Shown one piece after another: positions 2,377 through 31,748 of a stretch of 64,000 nucleotides of DNA. How positions within the stretch are numbered: the stretch's first letter is position 1; each line of letters starts with the position of its first letter. The notes under the pieces were generated by a model. It worked only from the letters and a program-made list of their open reading frames with translations, was not told the origin of the DNA and did no database searches. Source of the stretch: Candidatus Woesearchaeota archaeon (lineage in GTDB: Archaea > Nanobdellota > Nanobdellia > SCGC-AAA011-G17 > JACPIM01). The stretch is from NCBI GenBank assembly GCA_964457785.1, contig CAYWEX010000002.1, positions 15,691-79,690 on the forward strand, written 5' to 3'. A program made the translations under genes and the position numbers.

Positions 2377-2979
2377 TTAGATTAAAAATACACTGAAACC
2401 TGTCCTGAACAAGTAAATAACTGTGCCTGCAACCAGAGGAACAATGAAGTTATCGTCTATATCTGAAACACCAATTTTAAAACCAGCTCCCTCGACTATC
2501 ATTGCAAACAAGCTTGCGAAAAAAGCTTCTGTATAGCTCACAAATAAAATACTGCTTAAAAATGCAAAAAACATTCCAGCCAAGATTCCTTCTAATTTTT
2601 TAAGACCATTAAAAGCTAATTTTGTTTTTCCAAGAAAATGACCTACTAAGTAGGCTGTTGAATCTCCAAATGTCAGGATTATTATAGAGGCTAAGGCTAT
2701 ATCTTTATCAAATATTTTGATTACTAATAAAGAACCACCTAGAAAAAAGACCATGCCTTTAAATGGAAATTTTTTAATGTATTTCTTTCTTTCAAAATTT
2801 GTTAAAAGGAAGTTGATTACAGGAATTTTAAATTTCATGCTTAATAGCGAGAGAATGCCAAAGAAAATTATTAAAAAGAACAGATATTTTTGGGTTAAGA
2901 CATTATAGTAATATGTTAAGACAATAAACAAACCTGTACAAATGTGAGCTAATTTTCTTTTTACTTCTAAATTGTCCAT
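2377..2979 (-). CDS. CdsA-superfamily CTP-dependent polyprenol (dolichol) kinase / cytidylyltransferase-like membrane protein
   Basis: KRKLAHI N-terminus and GDSTAYLVGHFLGKTKL signature of the CdsA/SEC59 family; multi-TM. Confidence 0.6.
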   Translation of the reverse strand: MDNLEVKRKLAHICTGLFIVLTYYYNVLTQKYLFFLIIFFGILSLLSMKFKIPVINFLLTNFERKKYIKKFPFKGMVFFLGGSLLVIKIFDKDIALASIIILTFGDSTAYLVGHFLGKTKLAFNGLKKLEGILAGMFFAFLSSILFVSYTEAFFASLFAMIVEGAGFKIGVSDIDDNFIVPLVAGTVIYLFRTGFSVFLI

Positions 2980-2980
2980 T

Positions 2981-3008
2981 TTAACCTTTTTATAAAAAGC
3001 TTAACCAA
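2981..3008 (-). repeat. Stem-loop element copy (RNA sense UUGG-UUAAGCUUUU-UAUA-AAAAGGUUAA), ends 1 nt before the ATG at 2979
   Basis: Family member: 10-bp stem with a central G.G mismatch. A U-A pair replaces the consensus G-C pair. Confidence 0.65.
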
Positions 3009-3021
3009 AAACTTTTTGCTT

Positions 3022-3561
3022 TTAATTTTTGTTATTAAACAGCTTTATAATATTTACCCCAACTAAAATCCCAATCAACATTCCACCAATTATATCTGAT
3101 AAATGATGAACACCCAAATATATTCTTGAGAGAGCAACAAGCAAGGAAATTGTTAACCAGGTATATTTGTATTCTTTAAAATTTGAATAAAATATTGGGA
3201 GTAAAGCAAACATTATGGTTGTGTGGCCAGAAGGAAAAGAAAAACTTGATGTTTCAATTAAATTGATTAACGGCCTTGGTCTTTGTATAATTATCTTCAG
3301 AATAAAAACCAATAATCCTGCTGCGAGAAAAGAAGTCCAAAGAGCTATAAGGTTTTTTAACTTCTGATTTTTAAATAATGGAATTAATGTAATTATTACA
3401 GCTAAAAAGTAATAATTAAAGTATTTTGAGAAGAAAATAAAGAATTTATTCAAGCTTTCGATTCTTAAATATTCGATTAAATCTAAAATAAACTTGTCTA
3501 TATAAAAACTTAAAATCAGCATAAAAGTTAAACCAAGCAGTATTTTAGTTGTTTTTTGCAT
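3022..3561 (-). CDS. PAP2-family (polyprenyl-diphosphate/lipid) phosphatase
   Basis: All three PAP2 motifs are present: KIIIQRPRP, PSGHT, SRIYLGVHHLSD. Multi-TM. Confidence 0.85.
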   Translation of the reverse strand: MQKTTKILLGLTFMLILSFYIDKFILDLIEYLRIESLNKFFIFFSKYFNYYFLAVIITLIPLFKNQKLKNLIALWTSFLAAGLLVFILKIIIQRPRPLINLIETSSFSFPSGHTTIMFALLPIFYSNFKEYKYTWLTISLLVALSRIYLGVHHLSDIIGGMLIGILVGVNIIKLFNNKN

Positions 3562-3609
3562 CTTTTGGAAATCCTATAACTTTTTATAAACTTAACTTTT
3601 TATACTTTT

Positions 3610-4128
3610 ATGAAATACTTGCATAATTTAGGAATAAGGCTTTTAACAGCTTTGTTTTTATCTATTTTTGGAATCTATATAGTTTATTTTTTATTAACTT
3701 TACCTACTTTCTTTGCTTCTTATTTAACTTTATTTTTTTATAATCCCGCTATTTTTGGAAATATTTTAGTTATAAATGATATACATCTAGAATTTATTCC
3801 AGCCTGCATGGCTGCTTCAGCTTATGTTTTATTTGCTATTTTAATTTTATTAACAAAAGATATTGACTTTAAAAAGGGAATAAAGATGTTTTTATTAGGG
3901 GGCTTTATTTTATTTATGGTAAATATATTAAGAATATTTGTTTTGGCAATTGCGCTTATTGAATTTGACAAAAGATGGTTTGACACATTACATTTGTTTT
4001 TCTGGCAGATTTTTTCTACTTTTTTTGTTGTTATGACTTGGATTTATTTGACTAAGAAATTCAAAGTTAAGACAATTCCGATTTATTCTGATTTTATGTA
4101 TTTGAAGAGGCATTTAAGGATAAAGTAA
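3610..4128 (+). CDS. Minimal exosortase/archaeosortase-family protein (candidate)
   Basis: 172-aa polytopic protein with a Cys/Arg/His triad in family-typical contexts: IPACMAAS, VNILRIFV, DTLHLFFW. Confidence 0.5.
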   Translation: MKYLHNLGIRLLTALFLSIFGIYIVYFLLTLPTFFASYLTLFFYNPAIFGNILVINDIHLEFIPACMAASAYVLFAILILLTKDIDFKKGIKMFLLGGFILFMVNILRIFVLAIALIEFDKRWFDTLHLFFWQIFSTFFVVMTWIYLTKKFKVKTIPIYSDFMYLKRHLRIK

Positions 4129-4169
4129 ACTTTTTTAAATATTTAATTCCTTAAAGATAGTGTGTTGTT

Positions 4170-4652
4170 CTAGAAGTCTAAATCCTTCAATTCTACAATT
4201 TCTTTAAATCCTTTTAATCCTACACCTACAGATGCAATGGTTTGTGCTCGTGCTTTCATAACCTTTAATAATCCAGAATTAGGCCTTGAATGGAAATAAA
4301 TAGCTACACTATTATATGCTGGACAAGGAAACCTATTCTTATTTTTATTAGTTAAGAGTGCGAGATTGCCTTTTCCATCATTACCATATCTTGGATTTGG
4401 AAAAATCGAAACAGGTCTATGACATCCATGTTCATCTGGAACTTGAACAACTAAGTCTTCAAGTTTAGCAACTATATGTGGAATCTCTTTTTGAGCAATT
4501 TATGCTTCTTCTTTTCCAACTTCGCACTCTCCGATTTGACCAGTCACATATGCACAAATTTCTCTTTCAAAACTGCCTGCATATGTATCAGTATCTATAA
4601 CAAATAAATAATGGTCAGGTTCTTCTCGCTTAACAGGCTTTACCATAAACAT
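4170..4652 (-). pseudogene. 160-codon frame interrupted by one in-frame TAA (codon 51, complement 4500..4502); product unknown
   Basis: Manual translation: MFMVKPVKREEPDHYLFVIDTDTYAGSFEREICAYVTGQIGECEVGKEEA*IAQKEIPHIVAKLEDLVVQVPDEHGCHRPVSIFPNPRYGNDG...KDLDF. A TATA-like AAAATTATAAAG lies ~20 nt upstream. Absent from the ORF track. Confidence 0.55.
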
Positions 4653-4703
4653 AGGAATAAAGCAAGGCTTTATAATTTTTTGCAGGGAAACTCAAGATAA
4701 TTG

Positions 4704-4718
4704 CGAAAAGTTTAAATA
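4704..4718 (+). promoter_or_regulatory. BRE/TATA promoter (CGAAAAG-TTTAAATA) for the 4741 gene
   Basis: TATA centre is ~26 nt upstream of the ATG, consistent with a leaderless or short-leader archaeal mRNA. Confidence 0.5.
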
Positions 4719-4740
4719 TTACTTTGTATTACTTGGTAAT

Positions 4741-5001
4741 ATGATGGAAACTGTGAGCTTAAAATTAGAAAAGAAATTTTCCAAACACCTAGATAAAGTT
4801 ATGAAAAAACATAGTTATAGCACTAAAACTGAATTTATAAGAGAAGCTATTAGAGACAAGATTAATGAATTAGAAACAAAGCAAGCTTTAGAAAGGGCAA
4901 GAAAGATATACGGAGCTTCAAGATTAAAAACTACAGATGAACAATTACATAAAGCAAGAGAGAAAGCAGTTAAAGAGCTAGAGAACGAATTTGGATTGTA
5001 G
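4741..5001 (+). CDS. Ribbon-helix-helix (CopG/RHH) antitoxin-like DNA-binding protein
   Basis: N-terminal beta-strand VSLKLEKKF followed by TKTEFIREAIRDKI, the RHH pattern. Small, with a charged C-terminus. Confidence 0.7.
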   Translation: MMETVSLKLEKKFSKHLDKVMKKHSYSTKTEFIREAIRDKINELETKQALERARKIYGASRLKTTDEQLHKAREKAVKELENEFGL

Positions 5002-16967: not shown

Positions 16968-17651
16968 CTATTTCTTTGCTCCTTTTGATTTTTTAGCTTT
17001 AGTTTCTGTTTTAGTTTTTTTAGCTTTGGGTTTTTCTATTTTAACTTTAGGCTCTTTTTTTGCCTCTTTTTTCTCAACAACTTTTTCTTCCTTTTTTATT
17101 TCTTTTTTCTCAGGAAGAACTTTCTTTTCCTTCTTCTGCTTCTCTTTTATTTCATAACCCAATACTTTTAACTCTCTTTTTATTGTTTCAGAAGCTTCAT
17201 TCTTTTTTATCTCTAATTTTTTATCTAAAGTTTTTAAATGAAGAACGTTACATTTTCTTCTTCTTACCTGGCCATCAATTAATACAAAATTATCATCTAT
17301 TTTATCAACAACAACACATACTGAACCTGCTTCTCTTCCTGCTGTTTTTATACAAATCTGGCCTAAATCTAATGGAAGCTCTTTAAGATCTTTGAATTTT
17401 TCTATTATTTTTTCTCTTGAACAGTTTGAACATAAGTTTCCACCATAAGGTCTAGCTACTGTTTTTTGGGAATAAGGCAGGTTTCTAAAATCAGAAGGCC
17501 TTTCTCGAGGAATACCAATTAATTCTTTATGGCAATTACCGCATTTTGCTATACTTGGTTTTCTTTTTTCATAATGAGTAACTAACCTATTTCCAGGAGT
17601 ACGAACTTGAATTCTTCTTAAGCTTCTTGTTGCCTGTGGTTGTATTGCCAT
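16968..17651 (-). CDS. Fusion of ribosomal proteins eL34 (N-terminal) and eL14 (C-terminal) with a Lys-rich tail
   Basis: aa 1-~88: RSLRRIQVRTPGNRLVTHYEKRKP...CGNC...GGNLCSNC (eL34 zinc ribbon). aa ~95-165: GQICIKTAGREAGSVCVVVDKIDDNFVLIDG...RRRKCNVLHL (eL14 KOW). Single uninterrupted frame. Confidence 0.8.
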   Translation of the reverse strand: MAIQPQATRSLRRIQVRTPGNRLVTHYEKRKPSIAKCGNCHKELIGIPRERPSDFRNLPYSQKTVARPYGGNLCSNCSREKIIEKFKDLKELPLDLGQICIKTAGREAGSVCVVVDKIDDNFVLIDGQVRRRKCNVLHLKTLDKKLEIKKNEASETIKRELKVLGYEIKEKQKKEKKVLPEKKEIKKEEKVVEKKEAKKEPKVKIEKPKAKKTKTETKAKKSKGAKK

Positions 17652-21859: not shown

Positions 21860-22315
21860 TTATTTTCTCTTTACAAATAAGTTATTTTCATCTAAATATA
21901 GTTTCAAGTGTCTTTTACTTCTAAACTGGTTGCCTTTTATCATTCTGTAAATTTTAGTGTAAGTTTCTCGTGCAACCAAATCTTTTAATCTTAAGCTTTT
22001 AATAAATTTTCTCTGGACTCTTACTTTTGTGATCCAAGCTCTTTTTCTTGGTGTTCTTGCTGTTTTTGTTCCTTTTCTTGAACCGGGACCTTTTCTTTTA
22101 CCTTTTCTCTTTTGAGCTCTTAATTTATTTGCCCTGAAAGATGAAATTCCATGTTTTTGTTTTGCTTTTATTGCACCATCATTTATTAACTTCCTGATAT
22201 CTGCTTTTGTGATAGCTTCTTTTATTTCATTTAATCTTGTATTGTCAAACCAAACTCTATTTTGACCTGATTTCAAGATGTCTGCGGATATTCTTTTCTG
22301 AACATTTAATTTCAT
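21860..22315 (-). CDS. rpl19e: Ribosomal protein eL19
   Basis: NVQKRISADILKSGQNRVWFD...RKGKRKGPGSRKGTKTAR. Confidence 0.9.
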   Translation of the reverse strand: MKLNVQKRISADILKSGQNRVWFDNTRLNEIKEAITKADIRKLINDGAIKAKQKHGISSFRANKLRAQKRKGKRKGPGSRKGTKTARTPRKRAWITKVRVQRKFIKSLRLKDLVARETYTKIYRMIKGNQFRSKRHLKLYLDENNLFVKRK

Positions 22316-22764
22316 TGCTTTCCTCTTAATGCTGATTCAACTTTTCTTGTTATTTGTGATAGTTCATATAATGTTAATTCTCTTTGATGATCAGCAGGAC
22401 CAAATGTTGAATCTATTTTCTTTTCTATATCATCAAATTCTACTTCTATAGCTGCTTCTAATCTTCTCTTTGGTTTTAGATTGGAAACTATTCTAATTTT
22501 TTCTACTTGTGTTTGCTTTGATCTAGTATTTTGATAATCTTCAGCAATAATTTTTGCTACATAATTAAATACTAAGTCATGAGGGAGTAATGTTCCATCT
22601 TTTTTAGAAAACATAAATGCAACTGGAAATTTTAAAGGCTTTTTTCCTTTATCTCTAAAAACGCTATAACGTATATATAGGCCTACATTGTCTGCTATTG
22701 ATCCACAAGACTCCATAGCTGAAACATCATAAGTAAATGTTTTTGTTCTTAATTTTGTTGTCAT
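22312..22764 (-). CDS. Uncharacterised 150-aa protein inserted between eL32 and eL19
   Basis: Intact ORF with ATGA stop/start overlaps on both flanks (22761-22764 and 22312-22315); no known motif. Confidence 0.6.
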   Translation of the reverse strand: MTTKLRTKTFTYDVSAMESCGSIADNVGLYIRYSVFRDKGKKPLKFPVAFMFSKKDGTLLPHDLVFNYVAKIIAEDYQNTRSKQTQVEKIRIVSNLKPKRRLEAAIEVEFDDIEKKIDSTFGPADHQRELTLYELSQITRKVESALRGKQ

Positions 22765-27605: not shown

Positions 27606-28395
27606 TTTCTTCTACTTTTTCCACAATTACTTCTTCTGTTTTTTCTTCTACAATTTCTTCTTTGACTTTTTTTGATCTTTTCTTTTTCTCTTTTACTTCT
27701 GAACCTTCTTTGGGAGAAGCTTCACCAAGTGCTGGTTTTTCTTCTACAATTTCTTCTTTTATTTCTGGCTCTGGTTTTTTCTCGACTAGATCCATGTTTT
27801 TATCTAAAATTAATATTTTATCTGGAAGCACTATGTCTGGAGTCATTACACTTACTTTTATTCCAATTACACCAGATTTTAAATTAGCTTGAGCAATTGC
27901 TTTTTTTACTTTATCAGATGCTATATAACCTGATTTTTTTAAATGTCCTGCTTTAAATCTCCAGCTTCTTGCTCTTGCACTTGGGACTTTTCCTGAAATA
28001 ACTATTTCGGCTCCAAGAGCACCAGCATTAATTATATCCTGCAAGGTTTTGTAACCAACTGACTTAAATCTCTTTGAACCAAATCTCACCAGAGTTGATG
28101 ATATTTTATCTGCAATGAAATTTGCATCGAGCATAGGATTTTGCAATTCACCAATTTCAATTTGTGGATTTTCCATTTTGAATTTTCTCTTCAAAACATT
28201 TGTTAGTTTCCTTATGTTTTCTCCTTTTTTACCCACTACTAGACCTGGCCTTGTTGTGTAGATAATTACTTTTTCACCTAAGGGAGTTCTTTGAATATCT
28301 ATATGTGAAAATCCAGTTCCACCAAATTCTCCTTTAATATATTCCTGAATCTGGAATTCCTTTATTTTTTGACTGACAAATTGTCTTTCTATCAT
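27592..28395 (-). CDS. rps3: Ribosomal protein uS3 with a K/E-rich C-terminal extension
   Basis: KH domain GLVVGKKGENIRKL plus the S3 C-terminal domain. Confidence 0.9.
   Translation of the reverse strand: MIERQFVSQKIKEFQIQEYIKGEFGGTGFSHIDIQRTPLGEKVIIYTTRPGLVVGKKGENIRKLTNVLKRKFKMENPQIEIGELQNPMLDANFIADKISSTLVRFGSKRFKSVGYKTLQDIINAGALGAEIVISGKVPSARARSWRFKAGHLKKSGYIASDKVKKAIAQANLKSGVIGIKVSVMTPDIVLPDKILILDKNMDLVEKKPEPEIKEEIVEEKPALGEASPKEGSEVKEKKKRSKKVKEEIVEEKTEEVIVEKVEENENQ
27700..27728 (-). repeat. Stem-loop element copy inside the uS3 coding tail (translated ALGEASPKEGS)
   Basis: UUGG-UGAAGCUUCU-CCCAA-AGAAGGUUCA: 9 of 10 positions paired with a G.G mismatch. 29/30 nt identical to the uL22 copy. 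Confidence 0.8.
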
Positions 28396-28877
28396 TTTTT
28401 TGAACCTTCTTTGGAAGAAGCTTCACCAAGCATTTTTTTGGGTTTTTCTTCAACTTTTGATTTTTGTTTTTCTGAAGCATAAATTTCAACATCAGTTCTT
28501 TTCATTCTTCTTCCTTTATGCCTGCTGTAATGCCATGATACTGATCCTGAATTTGCAATTGCTTTTTCTATTTTCAACAATTCTGAATTTAGGCCTTTAT
28601 TTTTTGCATTGCCTTCTAATGTTTGAAGCAATTGTAAAAAGTGCATTGATGCTTTTTTAGGATAAAAACCAGGACCTTGATGTCCTGCTTTGTGTCCTCT
28701 CTTATGATAAAATCTTTTTAATTTGATTACTTCTTTTTCTTCCAAAACATTGTTCAATACTTTTCTTATTTTTGCAATTTCCTTGCCTTTCATAAATGAA
28801 CAAATTTCAATTGCATGCTTTGTTGAAATAGGCAAACCTGATCCAGATACTTTTGCTAAATTTTTTTCTTCTGTCAT
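28392..28877 (-). CDS. rpl22: Ribosomal protein uL22
   Basis: LPISTKHAIEICSFMKGK...; operon position. Confidence 0.9.
   Translation of the reverse strand: MTEEKNLAKVSGSGLPISTKHAIEICSFMKGKEIAKIRKVLNNVLEEKEVIKLKRFYHKRGHKAGHQGPGFYPKKASMHFLQLLQTLEGNAKNKGLNSELLKIEKAIANSGSVSWHYSRHKGRRMKRTDVEIYASEKQKSKVEEKPKKMLGEASSKEGSKK
28401..28429 (-). repeat. Stem-loop element copy inside the uL22 coding tail (translated MLGEASSKEGSKK*), 5 nt upstream of the uS3 ATG
   Basis: UUGG-UGAAGCUUCU-UCCAA-AGAAGGUUCA. Confidence 0.8.
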
Positions 28878-28878
28878 T

Positions 28879-29277
28879 TTACTTCTTTGGAGATGCTCCT
28901 GAACTAGATCTTGTAGCTCCTATACCAGGGGCTGAATGCTGAACTCTCCTTCTTGTTATTACAAATTCGCCCAAGTAATGGCCTAATTTTTCTACTGTTA
29001 TTGCAACAGGAACAAATTCCTTTCCACTATAAACATGTATTATTGTACCTAAAAATTCAGGTATGACTATCATATCTCTGCAGTGAGTTTTGATATTTTT
29101 CTTTATTTTTCCCAGCTTGAATTTTTTTATTTTTTCAATTAATTTTTTATGCTGGTCTGGAAGACCTCTCTTTAAATTTCTTCTCTGCCTTGAGGTTGTT
29201 AAATTCATGAAATCAATTAGAGTCATATCTTTGAATTCTCTTTCTGTCTTTCCTTTATATGTTGGTTCTTTAGCCAT
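28879..29277 (-). CDS. rps19: Ribosomal protein uS19
   Basis: HCRDMIVIPEFLGTIIHVYSGKEFVPV...GEFVITRR. Confidence 0.9.
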   Translation of the reverse strand: MAKEPTYKGKTEREFKDMTLIDFMNLTTSRQRRNLKRGLPDQHKKLIEKIKKFKLGKIKKNIKTHCRDMIVIPEFLGTIIHVYSGKEFVPVAITVEKLGHYLGEFVITRRRVQHSAPGIGATRSSSGASPKK

Positions 29278-29283
29278 TTTTAA

Positions 29284-29562
29284 TTAGTCCTTATTATTTT
29301 TTTTATGTCTCTTAATTTCTTCCAAAATTCTTTTTTCAACTTCCCCAATTTTTTCATCATCACCGAATAAAACTACTGTCATATAATTATCTGGATAGGA
29401 CCGAGCTTCTGTTTTTATAGCAATATCTTGAAAGAAATGAACATATGTTCCACGTGATATTTCTCTGATAATTGTCTCTGCTCCCATCATATTCATCATA
29501 CCATTAAAAACAAGAGGATTACAGAAATTTTCTTGTGGTCCGTTATAAATTTCTTTAGCCAT
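29284..29562 (-). CDS. Uncharacterised 92-aa protein inserted between uL2 and uS19
   Basis: Intact ORF; 1-nt gap after the uL2 stop and 6 nt before the uS19 ATG; no known motif. Confidence 0.55.
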   Translation of the reverse strand: MAKEIYNGPQENFCNPLVFNGMMNMMGAETIIREISRGTYVHFFQDIAIKTEARSYPDNYMTVVLFGDDEKIGEVEKRILEEIKRHKKNNKD

Positions 29563-29563
29563 T

Positions 29564-30286
29564 TTACTTTCTACCTGTTCTCCTTGCAGCGACTTTACCT
29601 ACTTTTCTTCCTGGTGGAGCATTTCTACTTACTACTTTAATCTTTGCGTGCATTCTTCCTCTACCAGAACCATAAGGATGATTCAAAGCATTCATAGCAA
29701 CTGCTGAAGTTTGAGGATATATTTTTCCTCTTGTTCTCATATAATGCCATCTTTTTCCAGCTTTTACAAACGGCTTGTCTTTTCTTCCGTGACCAGACAA
29801 AGTTCCTATTGTTGCCCTGCAATCTGGCTGGAATTTTTTTTGTTTTTTTGACGGCAACTCAATTAAAATTGAATCTTTAGTTGAGCTGATTATTTTTGCA
29901 AATGTTCCTGCAGCTCTGCAGAATTTACCGCCATCTCCTGGGGAGCTTTCTATATTATATATTAAAGTTCCCTCTGGAATTACTTTTAATGGAATTGTAT
30001 TTCCGTTGTTAATGGCTGAAGTGAAACCTGATTCTATAATATCATTGACTCTTATATTCAAAGGAGCCAGAATATATGCTTCTTCATTATTAGCGAATTT
30101 TATTTTTGCCAAAGGTGTTGTGTGGCCAGGACACTTTACTAAATCGATAACTTTGCCTGAAATTTTTGATGATTTTTCAATTTGATCATATTTTCTGTAT
30201 TTTACATCTGCCAAAAAATGACCAGAGTTAGCTCTATAAACTGGTGTTCCACGTCCACGTCTTCTGATCATTATTCTCTTTCCCAT
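29564..30286 (-). CDS. rpl2: Ribosomal protein uL2
   Basis: GTLIYNIESSPGDGGKFCRAAG...HPYGSGRGR. Confidence 0.95.
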   Translation of the reverse strand: MGKRIMIRRRGRGTPVYRANSGHFLADVKYRKYDQIEKSSKISGKVIDLVKCPGHTTPLAKIKFANNEEAYILAPLNIRVNDIIESGFTSAINNGNTIPLKVIPEGTLIYNIESSPGDGGKFCRAAGTFAKIISSTKDSILIELPSKKQKKFQPDCRATIGTLSGHGRKDKPFVKAGKRWHYMRTRGKIYPQTSAVAMNALNHPYGSGRGRMHAKIKVVSRNAPPGRKVGKVAARRTGRK

Positions 30287-30610
30287 TTATAATTGAGCTC
30301 CTACATCAGCTAATATTTTTACTAGTCTTGATCTTTCGCTTTCTGGAAATATTTGAATTCTATCTTTTGTTAAATGCATCATGCTGAATGAGGATATTGG
30401 TTTGTAAGTTACAATTCCATCTAATTCCATTATCCAATGATCTCGTGCTATGATAAATTCATTTTGTTTTCCTCTTTTTTTAAAAACGTGCTCTCTTTTT
30501 GTTTCTGATAATCCTAAATATTCAGCTTCTTCTATTTCTCCGTTTGGATATTTTTCTACACGATAAACATTTCCTTTTGTGAGTGCTGGTTTTTTAAAAT
30601 ATTCTTGCAT
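30287..30610 (-). CDS. Uncharacterised 107-aa protein inserted between uL23 and uL2
   Basis: Intact ORF abutting the uL2 ATG (0-nt gap) and 1 nt after the uL23 stop; no known motif. Confidence 0.55.
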   Translation of the reverse strand: MQEYFKKPALTKGNVYRVEKYPNGEIEEAEYLGLSETKREHVFKKRGKQNEFIIARDHWIMELDGIVTYKPISSFSMMHLTKDRIQIFPESERSRLVKILADVGAQL

Positions 30611-30611
30611 T

Positions 30612-30869
30612 TTACATTAGTCCTAGTTTTGTTGCTACATCCATGGCATTATTTTCCTTATTTAATTTGACGTATGCTTTTTTTCCTTCTACTCCTATTA
30701 GAGTATTTATTTTTTGAACTTTCACGTTGAACAGTTCTTCAACTGCTTTTTTTATATCTGGTTTTTTTGCTTTTCTGTCTACTATAAAAACAATTTTATT
30801 TTCTGTTTCCATTAACTTGAAACATTTTTCAGTTGCTACAGGATATTTTATTATTTCGTGACTTTCCAT
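30612..30869 (-). CDS. rpl23: Ribosomal protein uL23
   Basis: IIKYPVATEKCFKLMETENKIVFIVDRKAKKPDIKKAVE. Confidence 0.9.
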   Translation of the reverse strand: MESHEIIKYPVATEKCFKLMETENKIVFIVDRKAKKPDIKKAVEELFNVKVQKINTLIGVEGKKAYVKLNKENNAMDVATKLGLM

Positions 30870-31748
30870 TTACTTTTTTACCTTTGAACCTTCTTTTGAA
30901 GAAGCTTTACCAATAACCTTTTTTGAAACTTCTTGCTTTATTTCATTTGTAAATAATTTTTTTTCATTTAATATATCAATTGCGTCTTTTGTGAATAAAG
31001 TTAATCTTCCTGGTGTTCCACCTGGCGCTAATAACTCGACATTGATATTATTTATTAAAGTACAGTCAATTCCTTTAATTGAAGTTAAAACTTTTGAAAC
31101 CTCATGCTTTTTACCGAGAACAAATAAGGGACCTTTTTTATTTTGATATTTTCTTCCTCTTTTACTTCCCTGGCCTGCCTTTACTTTTTTTACATCCAAT
31201 CTTTGAAGTTCATTTTCAAGACCAATTTTTTCCAAGAATTTTAGTAAATCTTTTGTTTTCTTTAGATCATATAATTTATTATCAATAATTAAGGGCAGGT
31301 ATTTGAATAAATGGCCACGAGCTTTTACTAATTCCTGATTTATTACTGCGCTTAATGCAGACCTGATTGCTTTTCTGTTTTCTTTTTTATTTATTTTTTC
31401 ATCATAAATTTTGTAAGCTTTTGGAACATGAGCTCTTCTACCTTTGTATGTTCCTGGAGCAAATGCACCCATCCATTGGAATTGTGATCCTCTTCTTAAC
31501 AATATTTTTCTAGGTGCTCTGGAAATCCCTTTACCATAAGAACCTCTAAAGTCGCGTCTTCTTCTTGATATTTTTGCAGAAACTCTCTGACCTGCAGTTG
31601 GATAAGAACCATAAGGTTGTTTTTTATTTGATCTAATTGCCAAGAAAGCTCTTTGAATTAAATCTTTTCTTAAAGGCTCATTAAACTGACTAGGCAATTC
31701 AACTGAACCTGATTTACTTCCATCTGTGTTATATATATCTGCTTTCAT
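30870..31748 (-). CDS. rpl4: Ribosomal protein uL4
   Basis: L4/L1e family core (SYGKGISRAPR...GRRAHVPK); operon position. Confidence 0.9.
   Translation of the reverse strand: MKADIYNTDGSKSGSVELPSQFNEPLRKDLIQRAFLAIRSNKKQPYGSYPTAGQRVSAKISRRRRDFRGSYGKGISRAPRKILLRRGSQFQWMGAFAPGTYKGRRAHVPKAYKIYDEKINKKENRKAIRSALSAVINQELVKARGHLFKYLPLIIDNKLYDLKKTKDLLKFLEKIGLENELQRLDVKKVKAGQGSKRGRKYQNKKGPLFVLGKKHEVSKVLTSIKGIDCTLINNINVELLAPGGTPGRLTLFTKDAIDILNEKKLFTNEIKQEVSKKVIGKASSKEGSKVKK
30885..30913 (-). repeat. Stem-loop element copy inside the uL4 coding tail (translated VIGKASSKEGSKVKK*), 15 nt upstream of the uL23 ATG
   Basis: UUGG-UAAAGCUUCU-UCAAA-AGAAGGUUCA; 27/30 nt identical to the uL22 copy. Confidence 0.75.

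Follow-up and report, generated by a model that had tools for sequence, protein, structure and literature searches.

The gene order uL23-uL2-uS19 is among the most stable in cellular life. In the window studied here, i.e., the whole stretch of 64,000 nucleotides (nt) from contig CAYWEX010000002.1 of a Candidatus Woesearchaeota archaeon, it is interrupted twice. One small open reading frame (ORF), ORF107, stands between uL23 and uL2, and another, ORF92, between uL2 and uS19. This raises the question whether the two frames are real genes, when and how they entered the operon, and whether they have anything to do with the ribosome. Our reading, to which we assign a probability of about 60%, is that both are genuine cistrons that were separately inserted at stop/start junctions of the S10-spc ribosomal supercluster, where ORF107 is the older, maintained gene and ORF92 is specific to this genome.

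Coding status and junctions

ORF107 and ORF92 are genuine protein-coding cistrons. Throughout the operon, genes are packed by ATGA overlaps or TAA-A-ATG junctions, and both extra genes obey the same rule. That is, uL23 is joined to ORF107 by TAA-A-ATG (1 nt) and ORF107 to uL2 by TAA-ATG (0 nt, same frame). Downstream, uL2 is joined to ORF92 by TAA-A-ATG (1 nt) and ORF92 to uS19 by TAA-TTAAAA-ATG (6 nt), with TAA being the stop codon in each case. The positions, N-termini and gaps (1/0 and 1/6 nt) given in a preliminary description of this DNA are borne out by the ORF listing and the raw sequence, and the neighbours are identified by Pfam as uL23, uL2 and uS19.

Based on dinucleotide-preserving shuffles, the open-frame probability is P=5e-5 for the body of the ORF92 insert and 1e-4 for ORF107. 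Codon-usage log-odds trained on the operon amount to 0.29-0.30 bits per codon in the annotated frames, which is about the value of uL23, while the other five frames are negative.

The window is matched exactly by three separate assemblies (Logan contigs L002 and L012, SRR8863434; ENA contig L001), and L012 runs continuously through the end of uL2, ORF92, uS19, uL22 and uS3. This rules out an assembler artefact as the source of the arrangement. We also considered a polymorphism with and without the insert, given that a Logan contig breaks at the uL2 stop. Since the respective contigs merely overlap by 28 nt and L012 continues unbroken through ORF92, this break is no evidence for a polymorphism.

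Conservation and selection of ORF107

Relatives were found via the synteny of uL2, since single-sequence word-seeded searches with ORF107 or ORF92 returned the query alone. Using the uL2 of the window, two GTDB genomes with 85% identity were retrieved, namely Candidatus Woesearchaeota RIFCSPHIGHO2_02_FULL_29_19 and Nanoarchaeota H51-bin052_1. Both encode an ORF107 homolog of 105-113 amino acids (aa) between uL23 and uL2 (tblastn E 5e-24 and 4e-18). Including a metagenome scan and an alignment-seeded search, the family comprises eight 90%-identity clusters that are 35-69% identical to the protein of the window. Homologs are located between uL23 and uL2 in L003/L008-10, L004/L011/L022/L023, L006/L007/L019-21, L015 and L016-18. 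Every locus with enough context shows the homolog at this same position, with the relatives' uL2 being 83-86% identical. In the closest lineage (L007/L019), the ORF107 homolog is 66-69% identical. Wherever a source names a member of the family, it is annotated as 'hypothetical protein'.

The gap between ORF107 and uL2 is 0, +1 or -1 nt among the relatives, depending on the lineage. Because this spacing varies, ORF107 is an independent cistron and no readthrough extension of uL2. That is, a readthrough fusion of both genes is ruled out by their differing relative frame.

For ORF107, the ratio of non-synonymous to synonymous change (omega, or dN/dS; Nei-Gojobori method) is 0.40-0.66, compared with 0.05-0.16 for uL23, uL2 and uS19 in the same genome pairs. 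The upper bound of the bootstrap 95% interval is below 1 in 4/6 pairs. ORF107 is therefore selectively maintained yet evolves much faster than its neighbours. The preliminary description had named lacking conservation and a dN/dS near 1 as outcomes that would speak against the extra genes. For ORF107, we find instead positional conservation in a narrow Woesearchaeal clade and purifying selection. In summary, ORF107 represents an old, position-fixed and clade-conserved new family under relaxed purifying selection.

A separate observation concerns the synonymous divergence (pS) of ORF107, compared between the window and L003, L015, L017 and L019. It is below that of the flanking uL23, uL2 and uS19 in 5/6 genome pairs (0.28-0.48 vs. 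0.42-0.64). This could reflect a constraint at the nucleotide level or a method bias in AT-rich codons.

Insertion of ORF92 and its scar

ORF92 is a recent, genome-specific, clean insertion that derives from a family of stand-alone genes. It is absent from each of the five relative lineages sampled, of which L007/L019 is the closest; in all of them, uS19 follows uL2 after 1 nt, so that ORF92 is not conserved in position. Aligning the DNA with L003 and L004 leaves a single clean gap of 285 base pairs (bp) at ORF92.

The boundaries of the insert are marked by a perfect 15-nt direct repeat AAAATGGCTAAAGAA (100% identity, spacing 285; coordinates in Table 1). It combines the ancestral junction with the four codons that open uS19. 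Its upstream copy now starts ORF92 (MAKE-IYNG...), and its downstream copy starts uS19 (MAKE-PTYKG...). There are no terminal inverted repeats at the ends of the insert, no transposase within its 285 bp, and no second copy in the window or any fetched locus. A flanking direct repeat, as looked for in a target-site duplication, is thus present, but it is long for one and coincides with the uS19 start region.

An exhaustive phmmer scan of 1.84 billion representatives was done with ORF92. The only full-length homologs it revealed are P0010 (E 2.5e-5) and P0011 (E 3.3e-4), both of them distant. In pairwise comparisons, P0010 and P0011 match each other with E 2e-6, and ORF92 matches P0011 with 1e-14. 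All three have in common an N-terminal motif M-x-K-x-I-Y-[ND]-G...F as well as V-x-L-F-G...I-x-E-x-E-K before the C-terminal helix. The assumption that ORF92 is a complete orphan thus does not hold. Both homologs stand alone as genes, each preceded by an AT-rich region of its own, and are located on archaeal contigs of 27% and 35% GC. P0010 is found amid small RHH_12 and DUF2283 genes. On the archaeal contig L013 (35% GC; the stretches concerned are 1-369 and 436-759), P0011 directly follows a fragment of a RuBisCO large-subunit gene and precedes the genes for NFACT-R, YhbY, eS19 and eL31.

Further insertions in the same operon

A third extra cistron of the window, ORF150, is located between eL32 and eL19. 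It is missing from L022, the only relative for which the full operon was retrieved, where eL32 overlaps eL19 by ATGA. Compared with this state, ORF150 represents 449 nt inserted cleanly at the ATGA stop/start overlap, with a decayed junction repeat at both ends. It has no family match in Pfam, PADLOC or PHROGs.

A further gene is found in the relative L015 (Logan SRR22388059), where positions 1686-2279 encode a 197-aa pentapeptide-repeat protein (PF00805, E 7e-21) between the ORF107 homolog and uL2. The gene is set off by 1-nt spacers, with ATAAAATGG as a flanking repeat, and the place is an unusual one for it. Altogether, among lineages with 83-86% identical uL2, this operon has independently taken up unrelated genes at least four times.

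The preliminary description had seen the three extra ORFs of the window as one pattern. This is correct insofar as insertions recur in the lineage. It is not correct in the sense of one phenomenon, given that the proteins are unrelated (hhalign negative) and entered at different times. The pattern consists of genes captured again and again rather than of a single, coordinated set of new ribosomal genes.

Family searches and predicted structures

Both families are negative in searches of Pfam, NCBIfam, PHROGs, PADLOC and PDB sequences, based on single sequences as well as profiles, which confirms that neither ORF matches a family that can be named. The nearest matches are at chance level, i.e., the Sec3 PH domain (E 0.09), cytochrome b5 (E 0.007, against PDB only) and UPF0217/TrmY (E 0.04). 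Among models of defence and toxin-antitoxin systems, neither family has a PADLOC match, and all PHROG matches have E >= 0.03. No relatives are found in IMG/VR contigs.

The AlphaFold2 model of ORF107, computed from an alignment of 8 sequences, has a mean predicted local distance difference test (pLDDT) of 87.9 and a predicted template modelling (pTM) score of 0.81. It shows seven beta strands and a C-terminal helix. The top Foldseek matches in PDB are partial Tudor/SH3-like barrels with E 0.19-1, a template modelling (TM) score of about 0.3-0.36 on the query and about 40-66 aligned columns, and nothing reaches E <= 0.001. The earlier impression of a beta-rich, SH3/OB-like N-terminus is right in that the model is all-beta with a C-terminal helix and the best folds are Tudor/SH3-like, but none of these matches is significant. 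Tudor/SH3-like barrels such as the SMN Tudor domain (PDB 4qq6, 1mhn) are, like the ORF107 model, small all-beta domains; they have five strands, whereas the model has seven plus a helix. The likeness to PH-like domains consists of one weak Pfam match to PF15277 (Sec3-PIP2_bind), which at 13.2 bits is below the cut-off of 25.3 bits and concerns 1/8 family members.

For ORF92, the model (pLDDT 90.8, pTM 0.82; 3 sequences) has the element order beta-alpha-beta4-alpha, in line with the alternating beta-alpha pattern read from its sequence before. Here, Foldseek retrieves assorted two-layer alpha+beta domains from PDB with a TM score of about 0.5-0.58 on the query and 7-21% identity, the best match having E 0.024 and none reaching E <= 0.001. 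The element order of a TBP-like/helix-grip fold is present in the model, with the same E-value limits applying to this comparison. The C-terminal domain of phosphoglucomutase, the N-terminal domains of spermine synthase and BamC, and the Roco COR domain show the same order of secondary structures. These proteins have no common function, and ORF92 has no sequence-level relation to any PDB chain. Nothing significant is found among viral structure models (BFVD, Foldseek). Neither ORF107 nor ORF92 shows structural similarity to ribosomal proteins in PDB (Foldseek).

Proposed history and role

The history that we propose starts with ORF107. In the ancestor of a narrow clade, a new small all-beta family would have become established between uL23 and uL2 and been kept since then. 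Later, a member of a sparse family of stand-alone archaeal genes would have been inserted as ORF92 exactly between uL2 and uS19, with the start region of uS19 being duplicated along the way. By this duplication, ORF92 would have inherited the old start coupled to uL2, and uS19 would have kept a copy. The insert probably arrived by illegitimate recombination or template switching, guided by short homology within the junction/start sequence, rather than by transposition. Short homology is suggested because the N-terminus of the ORF92 family happens to resemble that of uS19.

Given that the junctions of ORF107 and ORF92 match those of the rest of the operon, we infer that both would be translated from the operon mRNA by termination-reinitiation coupling and at levels similar to ribosomal proteins. 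ORF107 has long been retained at a place where co-expression with uL23 and uL2 is enforced. Our best single guess is thus a ribosome-linked accessory role. That is, ORF107 is most likely a clade-specific partner of the ribosome or its assembly, e.g., a peripheral ribosome-associated factor or a chaperone of a very basic neighbour (uL2 or uL23). A core rRNA-binding protein is unlikely, since its charge is near-neutral and its evolution fast. ORF92 is most likely a recent passenger that profits from the expression of the operon; this is the most economical reading because close relatives lack the gene and its homologs live outside of ribosomal operons.

Several observations weigh against this account. 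The non-synonymous evolution of ORF107 is 3-10 times that of its neighbours, which suits a ribosomal role no better than an accessory or passenger one. The net charge ranges from -3 to +7 in the ORF107 family and from -10 to 0 in the ORF92 family, compared with +5 to +42 for the ribosomal proteins of the operon. For the distribution of ORF107, the searches used were word-seeded and pattern-seeded only, the exhaustive scan being the one made with ORF92. That scan yielded only the distant P0010 and P0011, and the donor of ORF92 was not found. Furthermore, the neighbourhood of P0011 leaves a translation-linked role for ORF92 possible, and the repeat AAAATGGCTAAAGAA could alternatively be a target-site duplication by another mechanism or the product of later gene conversion.

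A bolder version of our account goes further, and we put it forward tentatively, as a possibility with the odds against it. Here, ORF107 would be a new ribosome-bound protein specific to the Woesearchaeales, either peripheral or a uL2/uL23 chaperone, with a novel fold and made one-for-one with uL23/uL2. The supercluster would act as a platform for gene capture. ORF92, ORF150 and the pentapeptide-repeat gene would have been spliced in at the short repeated stop/start sequence and would have gained ribosomal-level expression at once.

Alternative explanations

An unlikely alternative is that ORF107 is a true structural ribosomal protein of the DPANN lineage, as may be ORF92 and ORF150. Such proteins would be incorporated into the ribosome in stoichiometric amounts with uL23, uL2 and uS19, and may compensate for reductions of ribosomal RNA (rRNA) or proteins. 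This would explain why ORF107, under purifying selection, holds a strictly conserved slot in the gene string that is conserved best of all, and why its junctions are tight and of the coupling type in all relatives. It could also accommodate the N-terminal domain of uL2, which falls below the Pfam threshold in this clade and hints at local divergence, and the genes for eS19, eL31, NFACT-R and YhbY next to P0011. Regarding the usual marks of a ribosomal protein, ORF107 combines operon location, coupled junctions and conserved position, and ORF92 shows the junctions without a conserved position. Strong basicity and slow evolution, which are typical though not absolute, are not found. The near-neutral or acidic charge is unlike that of every ribosomal protein of the operon, and the omega of ORF107, at 0.4-0.66, exceeds the neighbouring values several-fold. 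Both genes have a very restricted distribution (8 ORF107 clusters; ORF92 at this position in one genome), no fold resembles a ribosomal protein in PDB, and close relatives do without ORF92 and ORF150. The extra cistrons might instead be selfish or conflict cargo, i.e., toxin-antitoxin, defence, anti-defence or virus-derived genes delivered by a mobile element that targets junctions. We consider this improbable. Repeated independent insertions of unrelated genes with flanking direct repeats would fit such an element, as would the surroundings of P0010, which are of a type common in toxin-antitoxin neighbourhoods, and the pentapeptide-repeat protein inserted in a relative. Against this, neither family has matches in PADLOC or PHROGs or relatives in IMG/VR contigs, and ORF92 has none among viral structure models. 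Terminal inverted repeats, a transposase and an integrase are lacking, as is a second copy in the window. The genes do not differ from the host in GC content or codon usage, and ORF107 stayed in place across the whole clade, unlike mobile cargo.

Two further explanations question the origin or the reality of the genes. That the ORFs are non-functional, i.e., spurious frames in spacer or junk DNA or the result of a chimeric assembly, or that ORF107 extends uL2 at its N-terminus by readthrough of TAA, is largely refuted and in our view very improbable. ORF107 is indeed in frame with uL2 in the window, where TAA is directly followed by ATG, and ORF92 is without a positional homolog anywhere. However, this frame differs among relatives (+1, 0, -1), and L015 even has a whole gene in between. 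An open-frame chance of 5e-5 to 1e-4, a frame-specific coding signal, confident AlphaFold2 models, the conservation of ORF107 with omega below 1, three exactly matching assemblies and full-length ORF92 homologs that are significant against 1.84 billion proteins all argue for genuine genes. The remaining idea is that the extra genes are degenerate duplicates of their neighbours, with ORF92 stemming from uS19 and ORF107 from a domain of uL2. It is suggested by the first 12 coding nucleotides common to ORF92 and uS19 and their similar N-termini (MAKE..Y.G), as well as by the SH3-like domain in uL2 and the SH3/Tudor-like best folds of ORF107. Profile-profile comparison is negative for both pairs, with an hhalign probability of 0.4% for ORF107 and uL2 and of 1.5% for ORF92 and uS19. 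BLASTP finds no similarity of the latter two past the first few residues, and the ORF92 family has M-x-K-x-IY-[ND]-G as a motif of its own where the genomic surroundings are unrelated. Such an origin would thus be next to negligible; at present sensitivity, the sequence comparisons refute it. ORF107 and ORF92 are not relatives of each other either (hhalign negative).

Operon setting

The window has a GC content of about 30% and belongs to a low-GC archaeon of the Woesearchaeota/Nanoarchaeota type (DPANN) from groundwater. It holds a complete archaeal S10-spc ribosomal supercluster on the minus strand, from about 32.7 kb to 18.2 kb. The gene order is uL3, uL4, uL23, ORF107, uL2, ORF92, uS19, uL22, uS3, uL29, SUI1, Rpp29, uS17, uL14, uL24, eS4, uL5, uS14, uS8, uL6, eL32, ORF150, eL19, uL18, uS5, uL30, uL15, SecY. 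Positions of the features discussed are collected in Table 1. Rfam reports no known RNA family within 28700-31000.

Table 1. Location of the extra genes, their neighbours and further sequence features within the window.
Feature	Position	Strand	Remark
uL23	30612..30869	minus	upstream neighbour of ORF107; junction TAA-A-ATG
ORF107	30287..30610	minus	107 aa, between uL23 and uL2
uL2	29564..30286	minus	between the two extra genes ORF107 and ORF92
Upstream copy of AAAATGGCTAAAGAA	29551..29565	minus	last A of uL2 stop, 1-nt spacer and start codon/first four codons (MAKE) of ORF92
ORF92	29284..29562	minus	92 aa, between uL2 and uS19
Insertion-unique 270 nt	29281..29550	minus	ORF92 body, its TAA stop, TT
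Downstream copy of AAAATGGCTAAAGAA	29266..29280	minus	uS19 start region (MAKE...)
uS19	28879..29277	minus	downstream of ORF92; start region duplicated by insertion
ORF150	22312..22764	minus	third extra cistron, between eL32 and eL19
'LGEASSKEGS' module copies	28378-28429, 30862-30913, 27677-27728	minus	
eL34/eL14-like ORF	16968-17651	minus	227 aa

The N-terminal RNA-binding domain of uL2 scores 17.3 bits in this clade, compared with a Pfam gathering threshold of 23. In the relatives, the domain is either flagged as weak in the precomputed annotation or missing from it.

A DNA module of about 30 nt, TTGGTGAAGCTTCT(T/C)CCAAAGAAGGTTCA, which codes for 'LGEASSKEGS', occurs in three copies within the operon. 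uL4 and uL22 each carry one copy at their very 3' end, right at the cistron junction, and the third is inside the C-terminal tail of uS3. The module is present in the uL22 tail of the relative L004 and not in L003. It folds into a small hairpin whose stability does not exceed that of shuffled controls (z -0.6 to -1.5). The module may stem from sequence copying between junctions.

Two observations concern genes outside of the operon. Judged by translation alone, the eL34/eL14-like ORF of Table 1 is an apparent fusion of an eL34-like N-terminal part (zinc-ribbon CxxC...CxxC), an eL14-like middle (GQICIKTAGREAGSVCVVVDKIDDNFVLIDG) and a lysine-rich tail. In the relative L022, a 720-aa epimerase/dehydratase with an intein-splicing domain (PF14890) is encoded at 2666-4828, a few kb upstream of the ribosomal operon.

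Relation to known systems and significance

Unknown ORFs of archaeal spc operons have proved to be ribosomal proteins before, namely eS4, eL32 and eL19, and aL45-aL47 are lineage-specific ribosomal proteins of archaea. Together with the hibernation factors HibA and SriA/SriB, aL45-aL47 are small, lineage-restricted and ribosome-associated, and thus precedents for what ORF107 could be. They were found by ribosome biochemistry or cryo-electron microscopy, and neither ORF107 nor ORF92 has a detected similarity to them in sequence or fold.

Small operon-packed genes with overlapping or 1-nt junctions are also known from SUI1 (aSUI1/eIF1), the RNase P subunit Rpp29, SecY and the Hsp20 of Asgard archaea. 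SUI1 and Rpp29 of the window furthermore have a near-neutral charge similar to ORF107 and ORF92. These four, however, are known and widespread families at their usual positions, whereas ORF107 and ORF92 match no family and interrupt uL23-uL2-uS19. Their distribution differs as well: ORF107 is confined to a single clade and ORF92 to a single genome, unlike genes of the SUI1/Rpp29 type.

Lineage-specific additions to the ribosomal cluster have been described for Asgard archaea, with Hsp20 in some genomes, in a study that treats the string uL23-uL2-uS19 as a conserved core (PMC10833476). In the literature searched, we found no description of the two families or of genes that interrupt this string in DPANN, and no structural study of DPANN ribosomes. 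The finding is thus of a known kind, i.e., lineage-specific cistrons embedded in a ribosomal operon, and is built from two undescribed protein families.

What makes the locus informative is that this ultra-small archaeal clade repeatedly breaks a gene order of such stability. With ORF107 being old and selected and the scar of ORF92 still intact, it provides a rare before-and-after view of how genes enter an essential, translationally coupled operon and leave it working. If ORF107 were a mere passenger, it would caution that location within a ribosomal operon is not sufficient to call a gene ribosomal. ORF107 is also nominated here as a concrete candidate lineage-specific partner of the ribosome in DPANN archaea.

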